64,000 nucleotides of DNA from a virus. Its lineage: Duplodnaviria > Heunggongvirae > Uroviricota > Caudoviricetes. The stretch is from IMG/VR virus record IMGVR_UViG_3300047557_002576, one strand, 5' to 3'. Below the pieces are notes generated by a model that saw nothing but the letters and a program-made list of their open reading frames with translations, ran no database searches and had not been told where the DNA came from. The position numbers and the translations under genes are program-made. Below, one piece after another: positions 8,960 through 52,384 of the stretch (positions are counted from its first letter, which is position 1; every line of letters starts with the position of its first letter).

Positions 8960-9111
8960 TACCCTTTACCCTGTCCCCTGTACTTTTTACGAGCTTTATT
9001 ACGAGAAGTAGCGGAATACTTAGTGTTACTTCCAGCACCTTGAAGAGTGCTCTTAGGACGCCCAGGAACATAAGACCCAGTTCGCTTTGATCCAGTTGAT
9101 GATTTTGCCAT
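8959..9111 (-). CDS. small basic protein (50 aa, K/R/S/G-rich)
   Basis: ATG at 9109-9111. Its stop overlaps the ATG of the 8369..8959 gene (TAATG coupling). Sequence MAKSSTGSKRTGSYVPGRPK... Confidence 0.4.
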   Translation of the reverse strand: MAKSSTGSKRTGSYVPGRPKSTLQGAGSNTKYSATSRNKARKKYRGQGKG

Positions 9112-9116
9112 AGTGT

Positions 9117-9278
9117 TTAGTCTCCAATAATTTCAGTTTCAAGATCTTCAGGTTTTGGAGAACCTGTCTTATAAAATTCTATAGACAGATCCTCCATAAC
9201 ATTGAAATATTCCTCCTCTGTAAGATTTGAATAAATTTTTCTTCCCCTACAGAGGATGTTGTAAGTTTCTTTCGACAT
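9117..9278 (-). CDS. small hypothetical protein (53 aa)
   Basis: ORF MSKETYNILCRGRK... fills the gap between the glycosyltransferase stop and the 8959..9111 gene. Confidence 0.3.
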   Translation of the reverse strand: MSKETYNILCRGRKIYSNLTEEEYFNVMEDLSIEFYKTGSPKPEDLETEIIGD

Positions 9279-9282
9279 TTAC

Positions 9283-10038
9283 TCAGATGATTCTTGATTT
9301 TTCGTGACCAACTCTAATACGAGGGTCACACCAAATTTCAAATCCTGCTTCTTTTGCATCTAGACAGAATGATACATCTTCTCCACACATATCTTGAACT
9401 GCACCAGATTCAAAAACTTGCATCTTTGGAGCAAACCAAGGATATTTCATTTCAGGATGTTCAAAAACTCCATGCTTGATGAGAACCCAACCAAACCCAG
9501 TGTAGTCTACTGTAAATGGTTTCCGACGCTTTGAGATACTTTCAACGGTTTCGTGATTCATAACACCACCATTGCCACGGAAATCCTCTTCGTCCAACCA
9601 ATGTGCAACTGAGGTCGTGTGACCATCTTCAGTAGCGTACCAACCAGCAGCGATATCTTTATCCATCAGAACCAGTTGCCAGAATTTTTCTGTGTTGAAG
9701 ACAATATCACTATCAATCCAAAGTTGCCAATCGTATTGTAGTCTTCCATCCCAGGGAATTTGATCAGGTCCACGCAGGACATTCGCACCTAAACATTTGC
9801 ATCTTGCAAAATTTACCATTGACGAATAATCTTGCGAAATCTGAATACTCGCCCCTGACTGGACAAGATCAAAGCAAAGTTGGACGAAGTTCTTCAGATA
9901 AAGGTATGAAACTCCCCTTCCAGGAAGACAGAAAACAATTGATTTTCCCTTTACCATTTCTCTTGCAGCATCATAGTCCCACTCTTGGGTTTTTTCCACT
10001 GCAGGTGTTTTTGTTTTAACAGTAAATCCTTTAGCCAT
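9283..10038 (-). CDS. glycosyltransferase (GT-A fold, family uncertain)
   Basis: 251 aa. The C-terminal GEDVSFCLDAKEAGFEIWCDP...VGHEK resembles an ED/DxxFCxxA GT-A signature. Confidence 0.45.
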   Translation of the reverse strand: MAKGFTVKTKTPAVEKTQEWDYDAAREMVKGKSIVFCLPGRGVSYLYLKNFVQLCFDLVQSGASIQISQDYSSMVNFARCKCLGANVLRGPDQIPWDGRLQYDWQLWIDSDIVFNTEKFWQLVLMDKDIAAGWYATEDGHTTSVAHWLDEEDFRGNGGVMNHETVESISKRRKPFTVDYTGFGWVLIKHGVFEHPEMKYPWFAPKMQVFESGAVQDMCGEDVSFCLDAKEAGFEIWCDPRIRVGHEKSRII

Positions 10039-10090
10039 AATTGTTTGTAATTACTTCAGTATCATACTCTATTATCTATGCCAAGTCAAG

Positions 10091-10267
10091 TCAGTCAATT
10101 TCTTTTTCTGTCAAGATTAGATCGGATCCTTCGACATTAATTTCAATCTCAGTATCTTCATACCATGAGAGTTCATTGACCGCCCACTCTGGGATTACGA
10201 GATAATACTCACCAGAAATTGGATCGACTTGTAGTGGTTGAAAATTTTCTCCGGATTTTTTTTTCAT
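10091..10267 (-). CDS. small AbrB/MazE-like (swapped-hairpin) domain protein, 58 aa
   Basis: YYLVIPEWAVNELSWYEDTEIEINVEGSDLILTEKE fits the AbrB/SpoVT pattern (xxVxIP...G.eiei...lil). Shorter than the 60-aa track cut-off. Confidence 0.35.
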   Translation of the reverse strand: MKKKSGENFQPLQVDPISGEYYLVIPEWAVNELSWYEDTEIEINVEGSDLILTEKEID

Positions 10268-10544
10268 CTCTGTGTATTATTTTTGATTTTTCAAATTATA
10301 TAGTTTTTTTCCTTTTTGATCAAGGTCTACCGGCCGGAATTTTTTGAGTCGAGTGATATTTAGAGGTCGATCTGGGTCAGTTATAGATTACGGGGACCCA
10401 TTGATTTTTATATCGCATCTTCGGGCACCGCCACCCCCCATAGGGTAACTGTCAAACACGAACGCACATAGGGTCGCTAAATGTATCAAACTGTCGCCCA
10501 CTAACTTACAAATAGGGGGACAGAATGACTGCCCCCCACTAATA

Positions 10545-10715
10545 CTAACTGAATGCCATCTGATCTTCAACGAACGTCATAAGTTCGCCCACGTCGAGGT
10601 GGCAATCGACCCAATTTATCTCACTCCCATACTCTAAAAGAAACGCATCTACGACACCGCAATAGGTGGCGAATCGCAGTGCCTCAGAGTAACTAACTGC
10701 CAGGGGGTTGTTCAT
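10545..10715 (-). CDS. small hypothetical protein (56 aa)
   Basis: ATG is preceded by the 36-bp repeated element and a TCTCACCC leader, like its neighbours in the GC island. Confidence 0.3.
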   Translation of the reverse strand: MNNPLAVSYSEALRFATYCGVVDAFLLEYGSEINWVDCHLDVGELMTFVEDQMAFS

Positions 10716-10730
10716 AACGAAAGGGTGAGA

Positions 10731-10766
10731 GGTTTGAGTAATTTAAGGGGAGGGATTAACCTCCCC
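10731..10766. repeat. 36-bp repeated element GGTTTGAGTAATTTAAGGGGAGGGATTAACCTCCCC, copy 1 of 3, with internal hairpin GGGGAGG-GATTAA-CCTCCCC
   Basis: Near-identical copies at 10731-10766, 11186-11221 and 11886-11922, each about 15-25 nt upstream of a minus-strand ATG. Confidence 0.8.
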
Positions 10767-10775
10767 AAGTTCTAA

Positions 10776-11168
10776 TTACCAGTGCCAGGTTTGATAAACT
10801 TTAGTGTCCTCTTTGCCGCCGCAGATGTTAGTTACGCTGAGGTGAGCATTAACGTTACCCTTAAGATCCGCCCATAAGTTACGTGCATCCTCCACACTCA
10901 AACTATCATCAGCGAGCAGACACTTACCCCATACTTTCTCATCAGTCAGGATAGTTTGACGGTGTGAAGCGTAATCGAACTCCCCATTGCGTTTGAACAC
11001 TTCTAGGGAGATTTTAACTGTCCCATCTATTCTCACCTGCTGAGATAGTTTGCCACTACCTTTACAAGCGAAGCAAACGCCGCCGCTTACATGTCCGTAA
11101 TGGGGTAAGATACCTTTACCGTTGCAGCGGTCGCATTCATGAACTAGGGTTTCAAACGTGGCAGGCAT
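10776..11168 (-). CDS. hypothetical zinc-binding protein (CxxC...CxxC)
   Basis: 130 aa. CDRCNGKG ... CFACKGSGK. Confidence 0.5.
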   Translation of the reverse strand: MPATFETLVHECDRCNGKGILPHYGHVSGGVCFACKGSGKLSQQVRIDGTVKISLEVFKRNGEFDYASHRQTILTDEKVWGKCLLADDSLSVEDARNLWADLKGNVNAHLSVTNICGGKEDTKVYQTWHW

Positions 11169-11185
11169 GATCTTAGTGGGGTGTG

Positions 11186-11221
11186 GTTTGAGTAATTTAG
11201 GGGGAGGGATTAACCTCCCCC
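11186..11221. repeat. 36-bp repeated hairpin element, copy 2
   Basis: GGTTTGAGTAATTTAGGGGGAGGGATTAACCTCCCCC, immediately upstream of the 10776..11168 start. Confidence 0.8.
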
Positions 11222-11556
11222 GTTTATCATCAGAGGCGATAACCGCTCAATGGTTCGCTCTCACCTTCGGGCGGTTCAGCATTCCAATGGGAGTACTCGA
11301 CACCCCGTGCAACCATGCTGTAGAGCACTTCCTGGCACTCCGACAGCGGACCCCGCCACATAACCTCGCCACCATCCTCTCCACCCCAAATGGTGGCGAT
11401 AGGTTTGGGAGAGTTCGGGAAAGGGTCGGGCAGGCAGAATCGGCGGATCATGGGTCTTAGGTATGGTGCGGGATCCCCGTCCCGCTTGCAGACATCCTAC
11501 CGCATCGGGGGCGGATCCGCGACCCACCCCCGACACATTTGTTAATTTATAATTTA

Positions 11557-11868
11557 TCAGCGTAGTCCTAAATGCTTTGCTACAACGTAGGGCATTAAAG
11601 TTACATCGACGCCATAATCGTATTCTTCCGATTCTGCGGGGAAGAATGTCACGTACCATCCGCCCGTTCCAGTGATCGTAGGCACCTCATCATTAGACTC
11701 ACAACGACAAACGTAGTTGTATCCGATCGTTTTAATGTAGGACGCCATGCTTTCAGCGTTAGTGTGACCGTTGCGGTTGATCATCATCAGGACATTAACT
11801 GTATCTTCAAGACCAGAATAATCCCAGTCAATTTTAGGGATCCGAACAGTGGGGAGAGTAGCAGACAT
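11557..11868 (-). CDS. hypothetical protein
   Basis: 103-aa ORF with the repeat element upstream. Confidence 0.5.
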   Translation of the reverse strand: MSATLPTVRIPKIDWDYSGLEDTVNVLMMINRNGHTNAESMASYIKTIGYNYVCRCESNDEVPTITGTGGWYVTFFPAESEEYDYGVDVTLMPYVVAKHLGLR

Positions 11869-11885
11869 GGCGAAAAGTGTGGTGA

Positions 11886-11922
11886 GGTTTGAGTAATTTA
11901 AGGGGAGGGATTTAACCTCCCC
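11886..11922. repeat. 36-bp repeated hairpin element, copy 3
   Basis: GGTTTGAGTAATTTAAGGGGAGGGATTTAACCTCCCC upstream of the 11557..11868 start. Confidence 0.8.
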
Positions 11923-11932
11923 AGAGTGTAGA

Positions 11933-12178
11933 TCAGTGAAAGAAATCGTAGGGGGTGTCCTCTGTAGGATCCCAACTATCAGCGATCGACTCCAACGTAG
12001 GTTCGGGATCCTGACCCATGTTATAGGCGTCGATCAGACAATCCAGATAGAAATCCTCAGTGTCCATAATAGGCAGAAAATTATACTTGTCGAATCGCAG
12101 ATCTTCTACGCGATTCCACCAATCGCAGAATCCAGCATCATCAAAGCAGTTGGAGGTTGTGAGGTTTGCGGTTTGCAT
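11933..12178 (-). CDS. hypothetical acidic protein
   Basis: 81 aa, D/E-rich. Confidence 0.45.
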   Translation of the reverse strand: MQTANLTTSNCFDDAGFCDWWNRVEDLRFDKYNFLPIMDTEDFYLDCLIDAYNMGQDPEPTLESIADSWDPTEDTPYDFFH

Positions 12179-12371
12179 GTCGGTGTCAGTGGTGAATGAC
12201 TTTTACAACCTACACGACAGGCACGGATCGCACAAGCGGCAAACGGTTCGTGCTGATACCAAACGGGAAACTCATTCTATTAAAACCGCTGATGGGTCAG
12301 ACCCTTGACGGATGGGCGGGTCATGTGGTTTGAATCGGCATCTGATCTCATAACGCTTGCGGCATCTGCAT

Positions 12372-12413
12372 CATAACAGTAGCGTTATGTATGTCATAAC
12401 AGTAGCGTTATGT
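12372..12413. repeat. direct repeat CATAACAGTAGCGTTATGT, two adjacent copies; a third copy at 16101-16117
   Basis: Exact 19-mer at 12372-12390 and 12395-12413. A 17-nt core recurs at 16101-16117. Confidence 0.8.
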
Positions 12414-12445
12414 CAGCAGTTTGCACATAAAACTCAAACAGTGCT

Positions 12446-12570
12446 AAGTATAAAGAATAAACCAAGGATTGCAGAGTATAAAGAATAAACCAAGGATTGT
12501 AGAGTATAAAGAATAAACCAAGGATTGCAGAGTATAAAGAATAAACCAAGGATTGCAGAGTATAAAGAAT
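12446..12570. repeat. tandem array of 28-bp units AGAGTATAAAGAATAAACCAAGGATTGC, 4 full units plus a truncated fifth
   Basis: Read directly; units differ only at one position (C/T). Gapless, so not CRISPR. Confidence 0.9.
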
Positions 12571-12582
12571 CACTGCCCTTTG

Positions 12583-12681
12583 AGGATTGAATGTGATTAG
12601 AATAACCACACCACATGACAAAAGAATCACATTCAATCCTGAAAAGGTAGTGTAAAGAATAGAGAACTACTTTAGATTCAT
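12583..12681. repeat. two long inverted repeats: AGGATTGAATGTGATT/AATCACATTCAATCCT (12583-12640) and AAGAATAGAGAA/TTCTCTATTCTT (12645-12681)
   Basis: Read directly. Large potential stem-loops, non-coding. Confidence 0.8.
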
Positions 12682-12718
12682 TCTCTATTCTTTATACCTT
12701 CTAATCCTAATTCATTCT

Positions 12719-12880
12719 TTATACTAACCTTGCAGAAACTCCACAAGACTTATAAAACTTAACCATTCTTTCTGCTTCTTCTTTAGTTGTAAAGGATTGT
12801 GTTCTCCATTCACAATCATTATAAGGAGTCTGATAAGTTATAGTGAAACCGATTGAATTGATTTGTTGATTGTTGTTCAT
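12719..12880 (-). CDS. small hypothetical protein (53 aa), AT-rich codon usage inside the GC island
   Basis: ORF MNNNQQINSIGFTITYQ... Confidence 0.3.
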   Translation of the reverse strand: MNNNQQINSIGFTITYQTPYNDCEWRTQSFTTKEEAERMVKFYKSCGVSARLV

Positions 12881-12884
12881 GATT

Positions 12885-13020
12885 GAATAATGATGGTGAT
12901 GTGTATAATCTAGTCGAGATGTGTATGTGTGTGTCTCGACTAGATTAATGTGTGTGTGTCTCGACTAGATTGATGTGTGTGTCTCGACTAGATTAATGTG
13001 TGCATTCTCGTCGAGATTCA
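12885..13020. repeat. cluster A of palindromic 13-bp iterons (ATCTCGACTAGAT/ATCTCGTCGAGAT), including a 3-4x tandem of 23-bp units GTCTCGACTAGATTAATGTGTGT
   Basis: Read directly. Same core as clusters at 16450-16572 and 19020-19265. Confidence 0.85.
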
Positions 13021-13399
13021 ATCCTTGCCTGTTGCATTTCACGAACCAAGTTTAGATAGTTGATTCGTGTAGTTTTTTCTACTTCAGCACAAGAATCTGT
13101 GCGATGTAGATGCCACTCACTGAACGCAATTTGCCATTCAGTGTGAAGTAATTTGAGGGCACTCATCAATAATGCCAGCGACTCATCACACTGTTAGGAT
13201 CATTGTACCAATCTTCCTCCTCATAAGTTGTAACTTTAGGAGTCATCCGAACAATCAGATCATCGGAGAGTGTGCAGACTCCAGTTGTAACTAACTGGAA
13301 AATCTCATCAGGTGTCAGAAAGGTTTCCATTGTGGTGTGGTGTGAACTTGAATCAGTATAAGGTGGAGAGGTGGGGGGTTGGTGCCCCCCGTGTGCAAC

Positions 13400-13663
13400 T
13401 TAATCGACTGTCACAATACAGCGGAACCGTTGCATCTCATCAGCGTAAGAGTCAAGATCCTCGCTTGAAGTATCCTCCCAAGCGATCCATTCATTGTCTC
13501 CCTTGTGAAGATCAATGCACACCAGATCAGGTGCATTCTTTGCAACCTGATTTACACTGCCGAAAAAGTCTACGTAGACTGCATCCCGTTGGGCGTAAAT
13601 CTCAGGTTCGGGATCCAGTGCGGTGATCCAGCGGATGCTGTCCAGGAAAGCGGTGAGATCCAT
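13400..13663 (-). CDS. hypothetical acidic protein
   Basis: Track ORF 13400..13771. Likely true start is MDLTAF at 13663, preceded by the CCACCACACCACACC leader. Confidence 0.45.
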   Translation of the reverse strand: MDLTAFLDSIRWITALDPEPEIYAQRDAVYVDFFGSVNQVAKNAPDLVCIDLHKGDNEWIAWEDTSSEDLDSYADEMQRFRCIVTVD

Positions 13664-13856
13664 TGGGGTGTGGTGTGGTGGACTGAGAGAATTGTAGCAG
13701 ATCAGAGGGAACCTTGGCGACCCATTGCTGACCATTCGTGAGCAGGTTTGGCGACCCCATTGCGGACCCATACCAGTTGGCGGGTCTTAAGGTCGGAAGC
13801 GGGTGAGAGAGTCATGGTAGTGGGGGAACCTTTGTGGTTCCCCGTATTGTAGCAGA

Positions 13857-14114
13857 TCAGGCGAACAGAGCAGCGATCCGGTCACGCTTGCGGATCTGAT
13901 CGGGGATGATGAACCACAGATCCCGCTTGCCGTTGTCGGAGCGGGTAGCGTCCAGGATGCCCCACTTCTCAAGATCGACCAGCACCGCATGAATGGTGCC
14001 CTTATGGCGGCGGGGGTCCATCCCCATCAGGCGAACCAGGTCAGAGCAGGTCTGCGGACCCTTGCTGATCAGGATGCTGCGGACGGCGACGCGGGTGAGC
14101 AGGTGGAAGTTCAT
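13857..14114 (-). CDS. winged-helix DNA-binding protein (putative transcriptional regulator)
   Basis: Track ORF 13857..14153; likely start MNFHLL at 14114. TIHAVLVDLEKWGILDATRSDNGKRDLWFII is wHTH-like. Confidence 0.45.
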   Translation of the reverse strand: MNFHLLTRVAVRSILISKGPQTCSDLVRLMGMDPRRHKGTIHAVLVDLEKWGILDATRSDNGKRDLWFIIPDQIRKRDRIAALFA

Positions 14115-14367
14115 CGGTGTGGTGTGGTGAACTGAGAGAATCATACAGACCACTGTGGCAGGTTCTGATCCAGGTTGTGCCAGTGGTCAGACTGTCCACC
14201 GATGCGGGTTTTGTGGGCGTGCTGGTGCCTATAATACGGGGACAATCGAAGGAGGTGCGGGGTAGCACTGTAGACGACAACGATCGACACCGACCCTGCC
14301 TTGAAATAATGGCGGAAAAAATACAAAGAAAGGGGGCGGATTGTGCCCCCTGTTTGATACTTTAGGA

Positions 14368-14646
14368 TCACATGTCGATCCTTTCAATGTCACCATGTCG
14401 GAGGCATTTGTTAAACAGAGTGCCCCAACTTGTCGCTGCTTTGGATTCTTCATCGCTGAGCAGATCATACCAACGTTGGCACTCTCCCTCATCCTCCCAA
14501 GTATAGCGGTAGGTTTTGCCGCTGCTCTTAAAGGTTACAAGCAGATCATAGGCATCGGTGCCATTATCTGCGGGGATGATCTCCAGATGGGAGATAGCAC
14601 TGGAATCGACTTTAGCAGCGATGGAAAGGTCGGTGGTGGTGAGCAT
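14368..14646 (-). CDS. hypothetical protein
   Basis: 92 aa. Preceded by the cassette (hairpin GGGGGTCTCAGCACCCCC, TATACT, ATG). Confidence 0.5.
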   Translation of the reverse strand: MLTTTDLSIAAKVDSSAISHLEIIPADNGTDAYDLLVTFKSSGKTYRYTWEDEGECQRWYDLLSDEESKAATSWGTLFNKCLRHGDIERIDM

Positions 14647-14717
14647 TGCTCCTCCGTTGTTGACTCTTACAGTATAAGGGTTGGAGTGGGGGTGCTGAGA
14701 CCCCCGTGTGCCAGTTC

Positions 14718-15395
14718 TCAGGGTGTCACAATGGCGTTAACTTTATTCTTTGATGCCCCGTGAGCAGGAAACGCTATCACAAACTCACGGTCTGCTACTT
14801 GACACAAACCACAAGTGGCACAAGTTACCTTACCAGGATGCAATGCTGCAGGGCAGGTAATCACCTTCCGCCCGTTGGTTGTTGTGAAGAATCGACGCTT
14901 TTCTTCACTGTTAACAACCGCAACGGCGGGAATCTTATACTCAGTCATTACACGGTCAGCATCATCAACCGACTCACATGATGCATTGACGGTAAATCCC
15001 ATTCCGTTTGCATTCTGTAGAGCGATCACGTTATGATCGTTCAGAATGTGGTGAGAATAGGTGAAACCTTTCTTACCTTTGTTTGCATCAATTAGGCGAC
15101 GCAGTTTAAGGTAATCAATGTTACCATCATTGTGAGGAAGATCTCCAGCGGTATTGTGCCGCCAGAGTGTATTCTTGGGGACGATTCGGCGGATCTGAGT
15201 AATAAACTCATCCCAATTTACGCCCGTTTCATTGCGGTTCAGGCGATCCCATTGCATACGCTCACGCCCAAGAGTAGCGTAGCATCCTGCATTGTAGAAT
15301 GGGCAGGTTGTAGGGCAGGATACCCGCTCCGTGCGTGTGGTGGTGATCGGACCAGTTTTAGCGTTACCTGAGACCTTTGTGATGGTGACGTTCAT
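14718..15395 (-). CDS. cysteine-rich hypothetical protein (225 aa)
   Basis: SCPTTCPFYNAGC and CATCGLC clusters; no confident family assignment. Cassette upstream. Confidence 0.5.
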   Translation of the reverse strand: MNVTITKVSGNAKTGPITTTRTERVSCPTTCPFYNAGCYATLGRERMQWDRLNRNETGVNWDEFITQIRRIVPKNTLWRHNTAGDLPHNDGNIDYLKLRRLIDANKGKKGFTYSHHILNDHNVIALQNANGMGFTVNASCESVDDADRVMTEYKIPAVAVVNSEEKRRFFTTTNGRKVITCPAALHPGKVTCATCGLCQVADREFVIAFPAHGASKNKVNAIVTP

Positions 15396-15479
15396 GGCGT
15401 GGTGTGGTGCCGTTGACTCCTACAGTATAGGGGATGGGGGCAGCGGTTGCCGCCCCCGTAGTGGACACTTAACGGATTG

Positions 15480-15947
15480 TCACGCTGCCCAGAGGTTTTC
15501 TTCAATCAGGCGATCAATCAGTGCCTTAGAGAGTGACCCACAGTGCTCACAATGGGTCTCAATCTTCACCTTTTCGTGCAGGTAGTTGTAGACAGTCACA
15601 GACTGATAGTGACCGAAGTGCCAGCGATAAACTGCACTGAGAGTTTGCAGATACTTACGGAAGACCACATAATCATCGTAAGAAGTGTGAGACTTCACCC
15701 AGTGATAGATGCCGATAAAGTGGCGGAAGTCGGGAGTTGTGCGGAAATAACCTTTGTTGGCAGCACGACTATACTTAAGGGCATCCATGATGCGATCTGC
15801 GTAATCCTTGCGGAAATACTTTTCAGTTACTTCCTGGCAGACTTCATCAAGTTTGCGAATACCTTCCTCATTCAGTTGCAGAGGAAGAATAGGATTAAAG
15901 AACGGGGCAGCGTTGTTGTTAGCGGTGCCGTTGTTGAAGAAGGACAT
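15480..15947 (-). CDS. hypothetical protein (likely about 155 aa)
   Basis: Track ORF 15480..16172 probably over-extends in GC-rich DNA. The internal ATG at 15945-15947 (MSFFNNG) is the likely start. Confidence 0.45.
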   Translation of the reverse strand: MSFFNNGTANNNAAPFFNPILPLQLNEEGIRKLDEVCQEVTEKYFRKDYADRIMDALKYSRAANKGYFRTTPDFRHFIGIYHWVKSHTSYDDYVVFRKYLQTLSAVYRWHFGHYQSVTVYNYLHEKVKIETHCEHCGSLSKALIDRLIEENLWAA

Positions 15948-16256
15948 GGTTCGGTTCGGTGTGGGTTGTCGGGGTGGTGTGCCGCCGATGAGTGAATGAT
16001 GCCCCGCCAGAATCCAGCACCACAACCGACCTTGTGACACTACCAGGATTGTCACATCAGGCAAACGGACACTACTAATAGATGGGATGAGACATAATGA
16101 CATAACAGTAGCGTTATCATTAAGACAATAAAAAGGATCGGGCACCACCCCGATCCTCTGTACCCACATCACCTATACCATGCTAGGATTATCTGTTCTC
16201 TTACTCGCTGGGTAACTTTACTGAACAGTTGGAGGCAAACCCCTTCCTCCTTTGTG

Positions 16257-16445
16257 TTAGAATTGTATCATCCAGTCTGGGTCGTTGTCAAGTGCTGCCC
16301 AGAAGAAGTTTTTGCGATTCTGGGATGCAATGAACAGTTTGCCACCCTTGTGTTGTTCAACAATACATTCAGGGTTGCTGTCCATGAGATTGGCAAAACG
16401 ATTCTTTGCCTTGCGGGAAATTGGAGTGACGATTGCGGTTTGCAT
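16257..16445 (-). CDS. hypothetical protein (62 aa)
   Basis: ORF directly downstream of iteron cluster B. Confidence 0.35.
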   Translation of the reverse strand: MQTAIVTPISRKAKNRFANLMDSNPECIVEQHKGGKLFIASQNRKNFFWAALDNDPDWMIQF

Positions 16446-16449
16446 GATG

Positions 16450-16572
16450 AATCTCGATCTCGATGTGTGTAATCTAGATCATTGTGCAGGTCTCGTCGAG
16501 ATTGATGTGCCACTAGATGATGTGGCACATCTCGTCGAGTTTCAGAACTGGATCTCGTCTAGGGTTGGAACA
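16450..16572. repeat. cluster B of palindromic iterons (GTCTCGTCGAGATT, ATCTCGTCGAGTT, ATCTCGTCTAGGG, AATCTAGATCAT) plus inverted repeat GTGCCAC-TAGATGATG-TGGCAC
   Basis: Read directly. Confidence 0.8.
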
Positions 16573-16695
16573 TTATCTTGACTAGATTCACTAGAGTCCA
16601 TCCCATTACACAGTGCATCAAGAATCGAAAGGATGCTGTTCCCATCAGTGCCTAGACGAAGTTGAGCAATCAGAAGATCTTTGGTCATTGTAGTT

Positions 16696-16932
16696 TCAGT
16701 AATCAGGGGTTTCAGTAATTTTTACACCAAACGATTCGAGAACTTCATCATCATAATACTCACGAATCTCATTGATGAGTTCTTCTTCAGAATACTCGTT
16801 GTAGTTTGCAACGAGAGTGTCAAATACGAACTGTTCCATTGTCTTGTAATCCATGCCGTCCATTACGAACTCGGCATACTTCTCAACAAGAGTCGAGAAG
16901 TCATCAGTCCAGGTTTTTGCGTTGTTAGACAT
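16696..16932 (-). CDS. small acidic protein
   Basis: 78 aa, D/E/Y-rich. Confidence 0.5.
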   Translation of the reverse strand: MSNNAKTWTDDFSTLVEKYAEFVMDGMDYKTMEQFVFDTLVANYNEYSEEELINEIREYYDDEVLESFGVKITETPDY

Positions 16933-17114
16933 CAGAATACCAGATAGGGTGTGCCTTCGGAAATGAGACCAGGAATACTACAATGTGCAGAGCGAAGTCC
17001 AGTAACTTCATTATCCAGTAAAAGATCCTCCTCAAAGTTATAGAGAATGATCTCACGATCCAGTTGTTCTTCAGTCAGATTCTGAATCTGGGAGAGAAGA
17101 TCACGGTAAGTCAT
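16932..17114 (-). CDS. small acidic protein
   Basis: 60 aa; start/stop overlap with neighbours. Confidence 0.45.
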   Translation of the reverse strand: MTYRDLLSQIQNLTEEQLDREIILYNFEEDLLLDNEVTGLRSAHCSIPGLISEGTPYLVF

Positions 17115-17350
17115 CAGTCGTTCTCCTCAAAGAGTGAGCGAATCTTAGTCAATGCAGTGTAGTAATCTTCCAGATACTCACAATCTTCATCTTCATACTG
17201 ACGATTACTGTCCAGAAGATCATGAATCAGATCCCATTCGGAATCTGTAAAGAACTCTTTGATGGGGTGTGTGGTGGTGTTCATGTGATGTCTCAGGAAC
17301 AAAGGTAGTATGGCAGGGATCTGGTGAAAACACAAGACCCCTTGTGCCAC
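17114..17350 (-). CDS. small acidic protein
   Basis: 78 aa; coupled to the downstream gene. Confidence 0.45.
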   Translation of the reverse strand: MAQGVLCFHQIPAILPLFLRHHMNTTTHPIKEFFTDSEWDLIHDLLDSNRQYEDEDCEYLEDYYTALTKIRSLFEEND

Positions 17351-17530
17351 TTACTTAACTGTCACACATCATAGCAGATGGTGCCTTGAAACTCATCTTC
17401 AACCAGTTTGTTCTCATAATCATCCCAGAGGTGAAGATTCAGGAGAAAGTTGAGATGATCGACCCATTGTGCGTTGAGTTGCATGATGTGATCGTGATTC
17501 CGAATGATGTCGGTGTTGTAGTAGTTCATT

Positions 17531-17713
17531 TCAGAAGTCCCAGTTAGAGTTCAGAAAAGCATCAAAGGATTCTTCTTCAGCAGGGAACTCATCATCAAGA
17601 TCCCGCATCTCAAGGAGATCCCAAATCTCACCCGGAGCATCAGCGATTTCAATCCAGAGGGTGTCTTCCATGAGTGGTGGTGTCGTTGGTTGACTCTTGA
17701 AGTATAGGGGCAC
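17531..17713 (-). CDS. small acidic protein
   Basis: 60 aa. Cassette variant upstream (TATACTTCAAGAGTCAACC..CACCACCACTCATG). Confidence 0.45.
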   Translation of the reverse strand: MPLYFKSQPTTPPLMEDTLWIEIADAPGEIWDLLEMRDLDDEFPAEEESFDAFLNSNWDF

Positions 17714-17747
17714 TGTAGCGTCTTCTAGGTGCCCCTTAGGTCAGTTG

Positions 17748-18005
17748 TCAGAGTGGCACACAAGCACCTTGACGGACTTGAGAATAAGACTCACCAAACA
17801 ATCCGCCATTCTTATGGTGAATCCCATAATAATAGCGTCGTGTGTTCACTTCAGTGAGACCAAAGTGTTGTGCAATCGTCTTGAATGAATGAGTCGGATA
17901 ACACTTCTTATAAGCGTTAATCATTGTACACCAGAACTCTGCGTGTTTGGTGAATCGAATGCTCTTGGATGGATGAACTTGAACGGTTCTCATGGTACTT
18001 GACAA
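17748..18005 (-). CDS. small helix-turn-helix protein
   Basis: TIAQHFGLTEVNTRRYYYG is HTH-like. Confidence 0.4.
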   Translation of the reverse strand: MSSTMRTVQVHPSKSIRFTKHAEFWCTMINAYKKCYPTHSFKTIAQHFGLTEVNTRRYYYGIHHKNGGLFGESYSQVRQGACVPL

Positions 18006-18073
18006 AGTGTGATTTTGTGAGTAGACTAGGTTTGTCCCCGATGAAGATGAGAATCTAAGTTACTTTAAGACTC

Positions 18074-18577
18074 TTATACCGCTAGTGCCCCAGCAGGAAT
18101 GTCCACCAGTTCAGGATCCTGATCGGTGAACTGGTGCATATCGTAGCATACCCACTCACCCTCAGTGAACAGGTAAGAATATTCTTCACCTTTCGATAGA
18201 TACTCCTCTACCGAATCATCATGACGTGGTGGGGTATCTTCACCACGCTGAGAATAATAGAGTGGACCTTGTGCTACAGTTTCATTATTGAAACCAGCAT
18301 TAGTCCATGCAGAACTCATGTCACCTCCATCAATCAGTTCTGCTGCCTGATCATAGGAGTTGTAATGAGTCTTAAGAATACGACCCAACCAGGAAGGATA
18401 ACCATCCCAGTGATGATACGCAGAGAGCACAGAACCATCAGAGAGTTCAATGCCGATTCGTGATCTGGTTGCCATTGGTGTGGGGTGAACAACGATGTCA
18501 ATGTAGGGCATGAAGTGGGGGAAGGAACTCCCCCTTGTGTCAGTTGTTGAATCGTCACATTTTATATCCAGACACAA
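18074..18577 (-). CDS. hypothetical protein
   Basis: 167-aa track ORF; likely start at MPYIDIVV (18508). YHHWDGYPSWLG motif, no family recognised. Confidence 0.45.
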   Translation of the reverse strand: MCLDIKCDDSTTDTRGSSFPHFMPYIDIVVHPTPMATRSRIGIELSDGSVLSAYHHWDGYPSWLGRILKTHYNSYDQAAELIDGGDMSSAWTNAGFNNETVAQGPLYYSQRGEDTPPRHDDSVEEYLSKGEEYSYLFTEGEWVCYDMHQFTDQDPELVDIPAGALAV

Positions 18578-18729
18578 AGATATGACTCCTAAGTGATGAG
18601 AATTGAAAACACCAATCCTATCAGGAATCGTCCTGTTTTTTTGTTGAGTTGTGTCAATGATTTATTGTTTCCTATTTTATTATGCCGGAGACAGGATTTA
18701 ACTCCCTCTTGTATAACGAATGTTGTGTT

Positions 18730-18785
18730 TATTTATAAGGCAAAAGCGGCACTTGGATTTGATCCTTGTGCCGCTTTTTTTATTG
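18730..18785. terminator. intrinsic terminator hairpin (AAAAGCGGCAC...GTGCCGCTTTTTTT, bidirectional A/T runs) with an adjacent minus-strand TATAAATA late-promoter box at 18730-18737
   Basis: Read directly. GC stem flanked by an A-run and a T-run. Confidence 0.6.
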
Positions 18786-19019
18786 TCACAGTATACTTGA
18801 CTACCGCGAATTCTTATGCTAGTATAAATCTGAATAGTCTTTGACTTTAGCAGTGACTGATTCATCTCCTTCTAACTTTAGAAGTTCATGCCAATTAATA
18901 TCTTCCAAGTCTAAATCATCATAACACTCAAGGTCTAGTGTGACTTGTACTAGGCGTTTTTGTGCGATCATAAGAACTCGTGGTAGTGTGGTCTAGATTC
19001 TATCATGCGTAGTGACGAA

Positions 19020-19265
19020 ATGCAAGATCTTGATAGTCTTGCGAGTCTCGTGCATAATCCTCGTCGAGATCTGATGCATAATGCCCATCCTCGTCGAGAT
19101 TATAATCGTTGCTGTAAGAATAGTCGAGATCGTAATCGTCGTACATAACTCGTCGAGATTCTGTGAGTGACTTGATTATTGTACCATAAAACTCGACGAG
19201 ATGCAAGTGTTCTCACAGGTCTCGTCGAGATTCACATGATTCTATATATGCGTCTCGTCTAGATT
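19020..19265. repeat. cluster C of about 9 palindromic iterons, (A/T)CTCGTCGAGAT in both orientations
   Basis: Read directly. Sits between the terminator and the plus-strand endonuclease gene; the ORFs called here are spurious. Confidence 0.85.
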
Positions 19266-29623: not shown

Positions 29624-29785
29624 TCAGTCAGAAGTTACGCCAGCATATATTAGTGCTGCCGCAACGATGAGAAGAAGAATCAGAGGTAACATCTTGATGA
29701 AAAACAAGACAGGAAGACCTCTTGATAGAAGAATGAGCAGGATTAGAAATACACCTGTTCCAACACCAAGAATACGAGCAACCAT
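29624..29785 (-). CDS. small hydrophobic membrane protein (53 aa)
   Basis: MVARILGVGTGVFLILLILLSRGLPVLFFIKMLPLILLLIVAAALIY, between the pilin-like and SPFH genes. Confidence 0.4.
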   Translation of the reverse strand: MVARILGVGTGVFLILLILLSRGLPVLFFIKMLPLILLLIVAAALIYAGVTSD

Positions 29786-47634: not shown

Positions 47635-47844
47635 TCAAGTGTCCTCCCATCGGTCTTGGACCCAATCAGAACATACCCATAATAGTTTATCATCATAATA
47701 ACAATCTAAATCAGCAGGAACTTTTTTGTAAAGTTCAGGATTGTATTTGTAAAGTTCATTCATAAAAGATTGACCTACTCGCAGACCTTTATCATCTTCC
47801 CAATAAGAATTAACAAAGTTTTTGTAGAAAGTTTCGTAAGTCAT
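47635..47844 (-). CDS. hypothetical protein
   Basis: 69 aa. Confidence 0.4.
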   Translation of the reverse strand: MTYETFYKNFVNSYWEDDKGLRVGQSFMNELYKYNPELYKKVPADLDCYYDDKLLWVCSDWVQDRWEDT

Positions 47845-51622: not shown

Positions 51623-52384
51623 CATTATTCGTTCTCTTTTAGAAATGTCTATACCTCTGTGTTTTTGATATCTTGTTAGTGCTCCAGCATTAGTAATATG
51701 TCCTGTTTCTAAACACACCCATCTTTCAGAATGAAGTTTTTGTGCTGATTTTTTACCTGCTTCACTTTTTTCTTTAGTAGTGAGACCATATAAACCAACA
51801 CCTTGTTCTCTTCTTTTTACATCACCTTTTCTAGCATTTTCTTGTCTTTGTTCTAAAGTTAGTCCCCAAAAACCAATACCAAGTTTTTGTTGGGTTTTAT
51901 GTGCTTTTTTAGCACCCTTTCTTCCATTATTTGCTTTTTCTTTAGATGAGTGAGAATGAATACCCATTCTCCTTTCGTAACTTTTTTTACCTCCAACTTT
52001 CCCACCTTTTTTACCACCTATTTTTCCACCTTTTCTCCCACCTTCTTTCAAAATTTCAATTGGAACTTTACTGTAAAACTTTGTAGAGGTTTGATATGAC
52101 TTATTAGCAAAATGTGGATTTTCTACTACTTTATAATATTGCTGTAAAATAATCTCATCAGCATATGCTTCTTCTCTTGTAGCATAATCGTCTTTGAGTA
52201 TTATTTTTTGAGTTGGTTTGAATGTCTTATCATAAAATGAACCAAAATACTTTACATCTTCTTCTGGTAAGCATTTACATCCTCTGCTTCCAATATAACC
52301 TCTCCCCCATTCTTCATAAGAATAATAGGTATAGTAATACTCTTTTGGAGTTTCCATAGTTCTGCTTCTAAATTGTGTTCGCAA
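51620..52384 (-). CDS. Seg-like GIY-YIG homing endonuclease, paralogue 3 (254 aa)
   Basis: YYYTYYSYEEWGRGYIGSRG; Gly/Lys-rich repeats plus NUMOD3-like units. Confidence 0.65.
   Translation of the reverse strand: MRTQFRSRTMETPKEYYYTYYSYEEWGRGYIGSRGCKCLPEEDVKYFGSFYDKTFKPTQKIILKDDYATREEAYADEIILQQYYKVVENPHFANKSYQTSTKFYSKVPIEILKEGGRKGGKIGGKKGGKVGGKKSYERRMGIHSHSSKEKANNGRKGAKKAHKTQQKLGIGFWGLTLEQRQENARKGDVKRREQGVGLYGLTTKEKSEAGKKSAQKLHSERWVCLETGHITNAGALTRYQKHRGIDISKRERIM

Follow-up and report, generated by a model that had tools for sequence, protein, structure and literature searches.

We analysed a repeat-rich non-coding locus (12360-12720) in a 64,000-nucleotide stretch of viral DNA (IMG/VR record IMGVR_UViG_3300047557_002576, Caudoviricetes), and this whole stretch is referred to as the window. 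The locus lies directly downstream of a small open reading frame (ORF) of 53 amino acids (aa) and contains a module of repeated cores, hairpins and tandem units. Comparison with related loci indicated that the module is selected as RNA on the minus strand, which is the sense strand of the surrounding genes. We give about an even chance to the reading that it is a conserved, phage-specific structured RNA, located in an early cassette region of the promoter-early stem-loop (PeSL) type, which would act as a riboregulator or as a cis-acting RNA. An earlier reading made from the letters of the window (the sequence-only reading) had likened the locus to a replication origin or a packaging (pac) site and had named a structured non-coding RNA as its fallback. 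The fallback was well supported for the hairpins and the repeat core by covariation and G.U asymmetry, and the origin or pac claim gained no positive support.

Covariation was examined in the main hairpin. Compensatory changes were found in 7 of the 13 inner-stem pairs in a mixed alignment. The commoner architecture, obtained with RNAalifold and pair counts, comprised 25 pairs. Its cells were paired in 99.3% of cases, compared to approximately 40% with slid partners. Both partners had changed in 35 cells, compared to 10.4 ± 2.3 after shuffling, and none of the 500 shuffles reached 35; the sequences were mutually related, so these shuffle statistics, like the Wilcoxon p-value, are not true probabilities, although their direction was consistent. 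The outer helix in this architecture was the repeat core itself, TATAAAGAAT pairing with ATTCTTTATA, and one-sided changes across the 25 pairs gave 11 G.U cells and 4 C.A cells.

The strand was determined from the same kind of change. The hairpin on the sense strand showed 127 G.U against 4 A.C (61 against 3 in distinct contexts). Counted in whole modules, the sense strand had 198 G.U and 10 A.C, and the antisense strand had 40 and 78. Of the 63 distinct modules, 59 folded more stably in the sense orientation, and the median energy difference was −7 kcal/mol. A DNA palindrome bound by a protein is expected to show approximately equal G:T and A:C, so the G.U bias pointed to selection as RNA and not as double-stranded protein sites. 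A sense DNA hairpin on a displaced strand, as might occur at an origin, would tolerate G.T as well, and the strand test was thus also compatible with single-stranded DNA. RNA was preferred because the sense strand is the transcribed sense, which is the simpler reading. In ensemble folds, the first two array copies were mostly paired and later copies were approximately half free. A CsrA-sponge or Shine-Dalgarno (SD)-like reading of the plus-strand CAAGGAUUG was dropped, since the strand test favoured the minus strand.

The module, whose AT-rich core is 12447-12730 in the window, recurred in approximately 85 uncultured viral contigs, in 63 distinct versions. Its three components were GUAUAAAGAAU copies, a single long hairpin or two of them, and a tandem run of 1-9 AUUCUUUAUAC units. 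Most loci showed the same order downstream of the 53-aa ORF: 1-4 forward cores GTATAAAGAAT, often a small palindrome of two cores, and the long hairpin. The hairpin was followed by 1-9 units starting with (A/G)TTCTTTATAC at 24-28-nt spacing, by AGCACTGTTTGAG, by a last unit with (A/T)AACTG after it, and by a conserved non-coding segment. The central hairpin (hairpin B) was found in 56 of the 62 loci seeded with the ORF. A small palindrome like the second hairpin of the window (hairpin A) was present in L017, L022, L025, L043, L073, L095 and other relatives. The stretch of the window that carries the two forward cores (12686-12724) repeated one array unit plus core in inverted orientation, and it formed G.U pairs with array units in the sense fold. 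Further tandem arrays stood directly past the module in some relatives, of the AGCACTGTTTGAGTTTAATTCA type with up to approximately 10 copies and of ACGGATCCTGATGMT with 3-7 copies (L025, L056, L060; L061, L151, L265).

The 17-mer of the loop was used alone as a query against viral contigs. It was found in 90 viral stretches, one per contig, and approximately 85 of them carried the flanking motifs. The 53-aa ORF lay 35-281 nt upstream in 70 of the 90 stretches; 8 had another small ORF, 7 were at contig ends and 5 were unrelated. The 53-aa ORF had 63 related loci among viral contigs. The ORF and the module were linked in approximately 90% of the contigs, and the link was breakable in both directions. 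These comparisons indicated that the conserved unit is the non-coding module and not the 53-aa ORF. The link could also be taken as a sign of a DNA operator array, in which the 12-mer core is bound by a phage protein, such as the 53-aa protein or a weak winged-helix protein (13857-14114), and regulates the transcription of the region. The core occurred in both orientations and the 98-aa ORF gave a weak MarR-like match, as this explanation would have it. We consider it very improbable, because the module and the ORF could be separated in both directions and the G.U-only variation of the core pair indicated an RNA helix.

The module was specific to these viruses. Matches to the 17-mer in bacterial and archaeal genomes (596 Gb) were at chance level, and the module itself was found there only in two mis-binned short fragments of metagenome-assembled genomes. 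No module was found in cultured phages by near and distant DNA searches of the locus or by tblastn of the 53-aa ORF. When the hairpin was used as a query against cultured phages, the sole match was by chance, within a baseplate gene of DSL-LC02. Rfam gave no match at the gathering threshold, and the best matches at E up to 10 scored 11-25 bits against thresholds of 36-90 bits. No tRNA or tmRNA was found at the locus.

The loop of the main hairpin, GTCAGTGGTGTGGTT, was the most conserved part of the module. It had 14 consecutive invariant columns over 35 distinct sequences, while the stems varied. Its predicted unpaired probability was 0.69, compared to 0.32 elsewhere in the module, and this was seen in 62 of 62 modules. 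Such a stable hairpin with a conserved, accessible loop is what is looked for in a riboregulator. Modules with other loops were sought with the motif pair; most of the matches were AT-rich noise, and the search also yielded L265, whose loop differs by a single base, and L311, a relative without the loop.

The loop was exactly complementary to the leaders ACCACACCAC(UGA), CACCACUGAC and CACCACTGAC, which precede neighbouring genes. The complementarity to the initiation region was exact over 10-13 nt and lay 0-12 nt upstream of ATG. Five loop-complementary 10-mers were found on the sense strand of the window, 1-6 nt before the ATGs at 15395, 14114, 13663, 13330 and 12178. A 9-mer version of the leader was located upstream of the ATG at 11168, which gave six consecutive genes in all. 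The antisense strand of the window had no loop-complementary 10-mer besides the hairpin itself. The same was examined in 46 non-identical loci, where 140 sites lay within 25 nt upstream of ATG-started ORFs. Another 25 sites were on the sense strand, several of them before GTG, and 12 were antisense. The 165 sense sites in all were compared to a mean of 10.6 for shuffled 15-mers. The leaders were rich in C (46%) and A (30%), and none of the 84 distinct leaders contained an SD motif (GGAG, GAGG, AGGA).

Based on this complementarity, we propose tentatively, from sequence comparison, that a single "anti-leader" RNA may control all mobile PeSL-like cassettes carrying the CA-rich, SD-less leader in a lytic T4-like cyanophage. 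The module would be transcribed with the upstream 53-aa ORF, or just after it, and would be released or stabilised as a long hairpin RNA. The region upstream of the 53-aa ORF carried 2-5 palindromes of the ATCTCGwCGAGAT type. The long AU-rich duplex would stabilise or process the hairpin. The loop would then pair with the common leader ACCACACCAC(UGA); its partners could be many cassette mRNAs in trans, and perhaps also the site 12320-12329 in cis. The ribosome-binding region would thereby be masked, or cleavage would be triggered, and the gene class would be switched off, or otherwise co-regulated, as a group. The tandem units would represent the reiterated 3' strand of the closing helix, and the first unit, or the first two, would pair with the forward copies upstream. 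Additional units would arise by slippage and might serve as alternative pairing partners, as a processing platform or as weak promoter cores. With low confidence, the array was thus regarded as helix strands made by slippage, with a possible secondary role in promotion or processing.

Several points weighed against this proposal, besides the relatedness of the sequences mentioned above. The module was dispensable: it was absent from the syntenic site of the cultured Synechococcus phage S-SRM01, whose genes carry the same leaders, and from some other relatives that use them as well. A scan of duplex energy ranked the leaders high (−20 to −22.7 kcal/mol), but they were not unique, because the G/U-rich loop pairs promiscuously. 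The complementarity between loop and leader could go back to a leader copy that had been inverted; the invariance of the loop, however, argued for selection. The forward motif TATAAAGA was one mismatch from the late promoter TATAAATA and preceded no ORF elsewhere.

The pairing in cis was also considered as the whole function. A leader or insulator RNA of this kind would pair through its loop with 12320-12329 in the same transcript and would control only how the next gene is expressed or processed. The unusual loop variant of the window, GUCAUGUGGU, had an exact match in ACCACAUGAC at 12320-12329, with which it forms inverted repeat I16, and the conserved segment opened with GATTCCAACCAC.. in most loci. 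We consider this improbable. The closely related uncultured contig L002 retained the hairpin without the downstream segment, and most loci offered approximately 8 bp at the cis site, compared to 10-13 bp at many gene leaders. Only a single loop variant was available for the comparison of loop and site.

The anti-leader proposal was compared to known systems. The c4 RNA of P1/P7 and the CI RNA of satellite P4 are phage antisense immunity RNAs that are processed from the operon they control. The module would resemble them in having a hairpin in the transcription unit of its targets and a loop or single-stranded segment complementary to repeated sites near ribosome-binding regions. The c4 and CI RNAs act on two or three sites of one operon in temperate elements, whereas the candidate targets here were the leaders of many independent cassettes of a lytic phage. 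The module had no sequence or Rfam similarity to them. A further likeness was seen to RNAIII of Staphylococcus aureus, whose loop motif, like that of the Rsa RNAs, pairs with the ribosome-binding region of several mRNAs. The likeness would lie in a conserved loop motif directed against the ribosome-binding regions of multiple mRNAs. The polarity was opposite, with a G/U-rich loop against a CA-rich, SD-less leader, and the module was phage-encoded, would target one family of mobile cassettes and showed no homology. The loops of RNAIII and the Rsa RNAs are conserved and C-rich (PMC2790875).

The repeats of the locus were mostly as the sequence-only reading had listed them. Its two direct 19-mers (CATAACAGTAGCGTTATGT) were exact at 12372-12390 and 12395-12413. 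Both were palindromes, CATAAC-N6-GTTATG, and together with a third copy with one mismatch the window had three against 0.04 expected. The inverted repeat with 16-bp arms was the perfect centre of hairpin B, whose 28-nt arms were 89% complementary and enclosed a 26-nt loop. The one with 12-bp arms extended to the 17-nt arms of hairpin A (12650-12666 / 12681-12697, 94% complementary). The array had been described as five gapless 28-bp units. The unit length and the absence of indels were correct, but the array held 4.4 copies and not five full ones. Tandem Repeats Finder (TRF) gave it a score of 241 with 97% matches, and it consisted of four full units, one with C>T, and a fifth copy limited to the 13-nt core. 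The units stood head-to-tail without spacers, unlike a CRISPR array. The array and the inverted repeats were linked by the 12-mer core GTATAAAGAATA, which had been missed. Six copies were on the plus strand, five in the array and one at 12650-12661, and two were inverted (12686-12697 and 12713-12724). With one mismatch or fewer, the window had 11 matches to the core where 0.67 were expected, and the locus contained eight of these. All the repeat classes are far above chance. The AT-rich nature of the units was also borne out, as 12447-12730 had 31% GC compared to approximately 50% in the flanks. The absence of a credible ORF held too. ORFs that cross the repeats, such as 12394-12636 on the minus strand, showed no conservation, and they are artefacts because relatives differ by 24-28-nt units, which breaks any frame.

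These repeats bore on the origin or pac claim, in which the 28-bp units would be iterons for an initiator or terminase and the AT-rich DNA with inverted repeats would serve for unwinding. The layout was iteron-like, with direct and inverted copies of one 12-mer in 31% GC. Such a combination of tandem direct and inverted repeats in AT-rich non-coding DNA is shared with the iteron origins of lambda ori, P1 oriR, plasmid iterons and T4 oriE, and T4 oriE has been reported with iterons. An AT-rich region beside the repeats was present, but it is not specific to origins. The constraint lay on one strand: strand-asymmetric pairing is unexpected for double-stranded protein sites, and the core covaried with its inverted partner as a helix. 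Ten flanking proteins were scanned with Pfam and PHROGs, and none matched an initiator, helicase loader or primase; no terminase homologue was among them. The unit spacing of 24-28 bp was variable and not helically phased. The copy number ranged from 1 to 9 and changed even between relatives with 96% identity. The module was also absent from the syntenic site of S-SRM01, a viable phage, and from other relatives. A change in cumulative GC skew near 11 kb matched a GC-rich island and was no global extreme, so it was uninformative. In T4-like phages, packaging is of the headful type and replication is initiated from R-loops and by recombination. A role as an origin or pac site is therefore considered very improbable.

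The module was located among small-gene cassettes that extended over 11168-15408 on the minus strand. The cassette family was characterised by a stem-loop of G and C, by a hexamer that resembled a −10 and stood 16 nt ahead of the motif, and by AGTTCAC-ACCACACCAC-(TGA)-ATG. The −10-like hexamers included TAGGAT, TAGACT, TACAAT and TATACT. A consensus of promoter and leader was built from 120 distinct upstream regions. A TAnnnT hexamer was found 16 nt ahead of the leader motif in 40 of the 120 cassettes, and a clear −35 was present in a subset only. The internal ATGs at 14114 and 13663 followed leaders, and therefore the ORFs 13857-14153 and 13400-13771 start later than listed.

PeSL cassettes border the ORFans of hyperplastic genome regions in T4-type phages (PMC2839356; PMC4122927). 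Their stem-loop is usually poly-G...poly-C and directly precedes or overlaps an early promoter, with an SD and a start codon 3' of it (PMC2839356). The cassettes of the window resembled PeSLs (PMC2839356, PMC4122927) in that small ORFans were preceded by a G/C stem-loop, a candidate −10 of sigma70-like type and a short leader, and the stem-loops overlapped promoter-like elements. Examples of the stem-loop were GGGGAGG..CCTCCCC at approximately 11900 and GGGGGGCACCAACCCCCC at approximately 13380. The locus was also, like PeSL regions, a hot spot of indels and copy-number change between close relatives. The leader differed, as it was CA-rich and carried no SD in any of the 84 examples. The hairpins of the module were long and AT-rich with a conserved 15-nt loop, and the definition of PeSLs includes neither a tandem 28-nt array nor an anti-leader hairpin. 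Degraded "half" PeSLs near indels have been mentioned (PMC4122927).

This setting supports a more passive explanation, a PeSL-like composite. The hairpins would be terminator or attenuator stem-loops and the AUUCUUUAUAC units would be reiterated promoter cores, in which TATACT serves as −10 and the unit before it provides a TTGCAA-like −35. Alternatively, the units would be "half-cassette" scars that recombination has left at a hyperplastic hot spot. The loop complementarity would be a relic of an inverted cassette, without a role in trans. The neighbours were indeed PeSL-like cassettes with GC stem-loop, −10, leader and ATG, and TATACT was among the −10 hexamers of real cassettes. A promoter scan found TCTACA-17-TATACT inside the array, and array units matched 9 of 12 positions. 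The motif ATTCTTTATA(C/G/T) stood 30-55 nt before a gene in L311 and S-SRM01. The indel hot spot was evident from comparison with L002, in which the copy number differed, 12196-12446 was replaced and ORF 12993-13169 was missing. A relic would drift, but the loop was invariant over 35 distinct sequences while the stems changed. The unit core was 11 nt long and not a hexamer, and it covaried with its upstream partner as an RNA helix, with one-sided changes of 7 G.U against 4 C.A cells. The last array copy, on which promoter function would depend, was often TATACA, without the critical final T, and downstream genes usually owned a cassette promoter. We consider the composite unlikely. An array of sigma70 promoters, tried as a candidate in its own right, had partial support and was rejected, since the core was conserved over 11 nt, had no conserved −35 and often ended in a TATACA copy.

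The conserved core (A/G)TTCTTTATAC formed the outer hairpin helix in most relatives, and the array unit core was the 3' strand of this closing helix. Past the array, relatives had 1-10 copies of AGCACTGTTTGAG, and (A/T)AACTG was nearly always present after the last unit. The 19-mers lay beyond this end. A homologous sub-element with the half-sites CATAACGC / GCGTTATG was found in L013-L016 and L176, and none was found in L002. The 19-mers are most likely a separate operator or promoter for the downstream gene. The third copy (16101-16118) preceded a gene with a conserved part from approximately 15950, and it may be an operator in common with the pair at 12372-12413.

The segment between the array and the 81-aa gene (approximately 150-350 nt; ..CCGTCAAG.GTTTGACCCATTAGCGTTGCTGAT..TTTGGTATC..GATACC..) was conserved in many loci and also in the module-less S-SRM01 (L001 13690-13960, minus). 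It had no Rfam match and was missing from L002. This segment could be a long structured 5' untranslated region or a promoter region. Within it, the leader-like site 12320-12329 was the complement of the loop variant found in the window. The window contained exact copies of the T4-type late promoter TATAAATA, 10 on the minus strand and none on the plus strand. Most had the upstream context CACCTTTTCTTG and stood 19-30 nt before an ATG. The forward motif TATAAAGA was tried as a late promoter and rejected, as its one mismatch to TATAAATA was invariant in all loci. The positions of these features are given in the table.

Table. Positions of the module, its neighbouring elements and related features in the window.
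Feature	Position	Strand	Remarks
Second repeat cluster	12906..13018	-	upstream of the 53-aa ORF; ATCTCGwCGAGAT / ATCTAGwCGAGA palindromes, each followed by CACACA
53-aa ORF	12719..12880	-	directly upstream of the module in sense orientation; linked in most contigs, not all
Two forward cores	12686..12724	-	GUAUAAAGAAUG 12713-12724 and GUAUAAAGAAUA 12686-12697; 15-nt spacer
Hairpin A	12650..12697	-	17-nt arms = inverted core pair GUAUAAAGAAUAGAGAA ... UUCUCUAUUCUUUACAC
Hairpin B, conserved centre of the module	12571..12652	-	arms 12571-12598 / 12625-12652; loop 12599-12624
Putative anti-leader loop sequence	12604..12619	-	sense in the window GUCAUGUGGUGUGGUU; consensus in relatives GUCAGUGGUGUGGUU
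Tandem array, 4.4 x 28 nt	12447..12570	-	TRF; sense-strand unit AUUCUUUAUACUCUGCAAUCCUUGGUUU
Array core copies	12448-12459, 12476-12487, 12504-12515, 12532-12543, 12560-12571		
Array end	12415..12447	-	motif UUAGCACUGUUUGAG 12433-12447 and degenerate terminal copy UUUUAUGUGCAAACUGCU 12415-12432
Two 19-mer palindromes	12372..12413	-	overlap the best sigma70-like match of the region, ATGACA-16-TGTTATGAT (12397 to 12370)
Third 19-mer copy	16101-16118		CATAAC-N6-GTTAT palindrome; one mismatch
Conserved non-coding segment	12196..12371	-	..GAUUCAAACCACAUGAC..CCAUCCGUCAAG..GACCCAUCAGCG..UUUGGUAUC..; reaches the leader of the 81-aa gene
CA-rich leader, candidate target	12185..12194	-	CACCACUGAC; 6 nt upstream of AUG 12178, 81-aa gene
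Equivalent leaders	11180-11188, 13332-13341, 13670-13679, 14119-14128, 15399-15408	-	
Late promoters TATAAATA	55462, 52395, 46013, 40272, 37473, 28509, 24659	-	

The window belonged to a T4-like freshwater cyanomyovirus. Its closest deposited relative was S-SRM01 (Kyanoviridae), with 72-78% nucleotide identity over baseplate and adjacent genes. The genes around the locus were all on the minus strand and were small ORFs of unknown function. An island at approximately 9000-19000 had 40-52% GC, compared to 30-36% in the rest of the genome, and it housed the cassette genes and the 31%-GC module. The contig L002 was approximately 96% identical on either side of the locus. It had 2.6 array units, and it lacked ORF 12993-13169 and the stretch 12196-12446 with the 19-mers, in place of which approximately 85 unrelated bases were found. 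The locus is therefore a hot spot at which sequence is inserted or deleted and copy number changes. S-SRM01 has an oppositely oriented HNH endonuclease gene, gp180 (L001 14010-14447), exactly where the 53-aa ORF, the hairpins and the array would be, and this placement suggests replacement by a homing element.

Other observations were made near the locus and along the window. An extra, very basic ORF (MFGRWIHKDGKSRPDKRFKN...KKKK, approximately 40 aa) stood between the 53-aa ORF and the hairpin in L004, L005, L010, L012, L032 and L041, and it was not present in the window. Palindromes like those of 12906-13018 occurred in 2-5 copies at the equivalent position in nearly all related loci. ATCTCGwCGAGAT / ATCTAGwCTAGAT palindromes with CACACA were also found at 16446-16541 and 18990-19265, upstream of a second class of small genes. 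These clusters look like operators or a distinct promoter class, and similar strings at 19050-19160 may be coding (D-L-D-E, minus strand). An ORF starting with MSQGIIYLITNKVNGHKYVGQTTQ... ran on the plus strand from approximately 19528, opposite to its neighbours, and it looks like a GIY-YIG homing endonuclease. TRF gave other tandem repeats at 51983-52049 (TTTTTTACCACC x5.5), 29673-29742 (28-nt x2.6) and 47715-47758 (21-nt x2.1).

Whatever the mechanism, three results are defined. The module is a new phage RNA motif outside Rfam, with 63 distinct examples and covariation. The cassettes are a new leader/promoter type of freshwater cyanophages. The third result is the correction of two start codons of the window. 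T4-like cyanophages are major agents of cyanobacterial mortality. To our knowledge, they are without the T4 MotA/AsiA middle-mode system, and the timing of their small, fast-evolving early genes is largely unknown. If the anti-leader proposal is true, it would provide a concrete, testable mechanism for the joint shut-off of one class of cassette genes. It would also give a reason why the cassettes retain the unusual SD-less leader. T4 shuts off its early mRNAs with RegA and RegB, and the module would be an RNA-based functional parallel to this. A new cassette arriving with the standard leader would automatically come under one post-transcriptional switch, which would act as a plug-and-play system for the hyperplastic gene pool.

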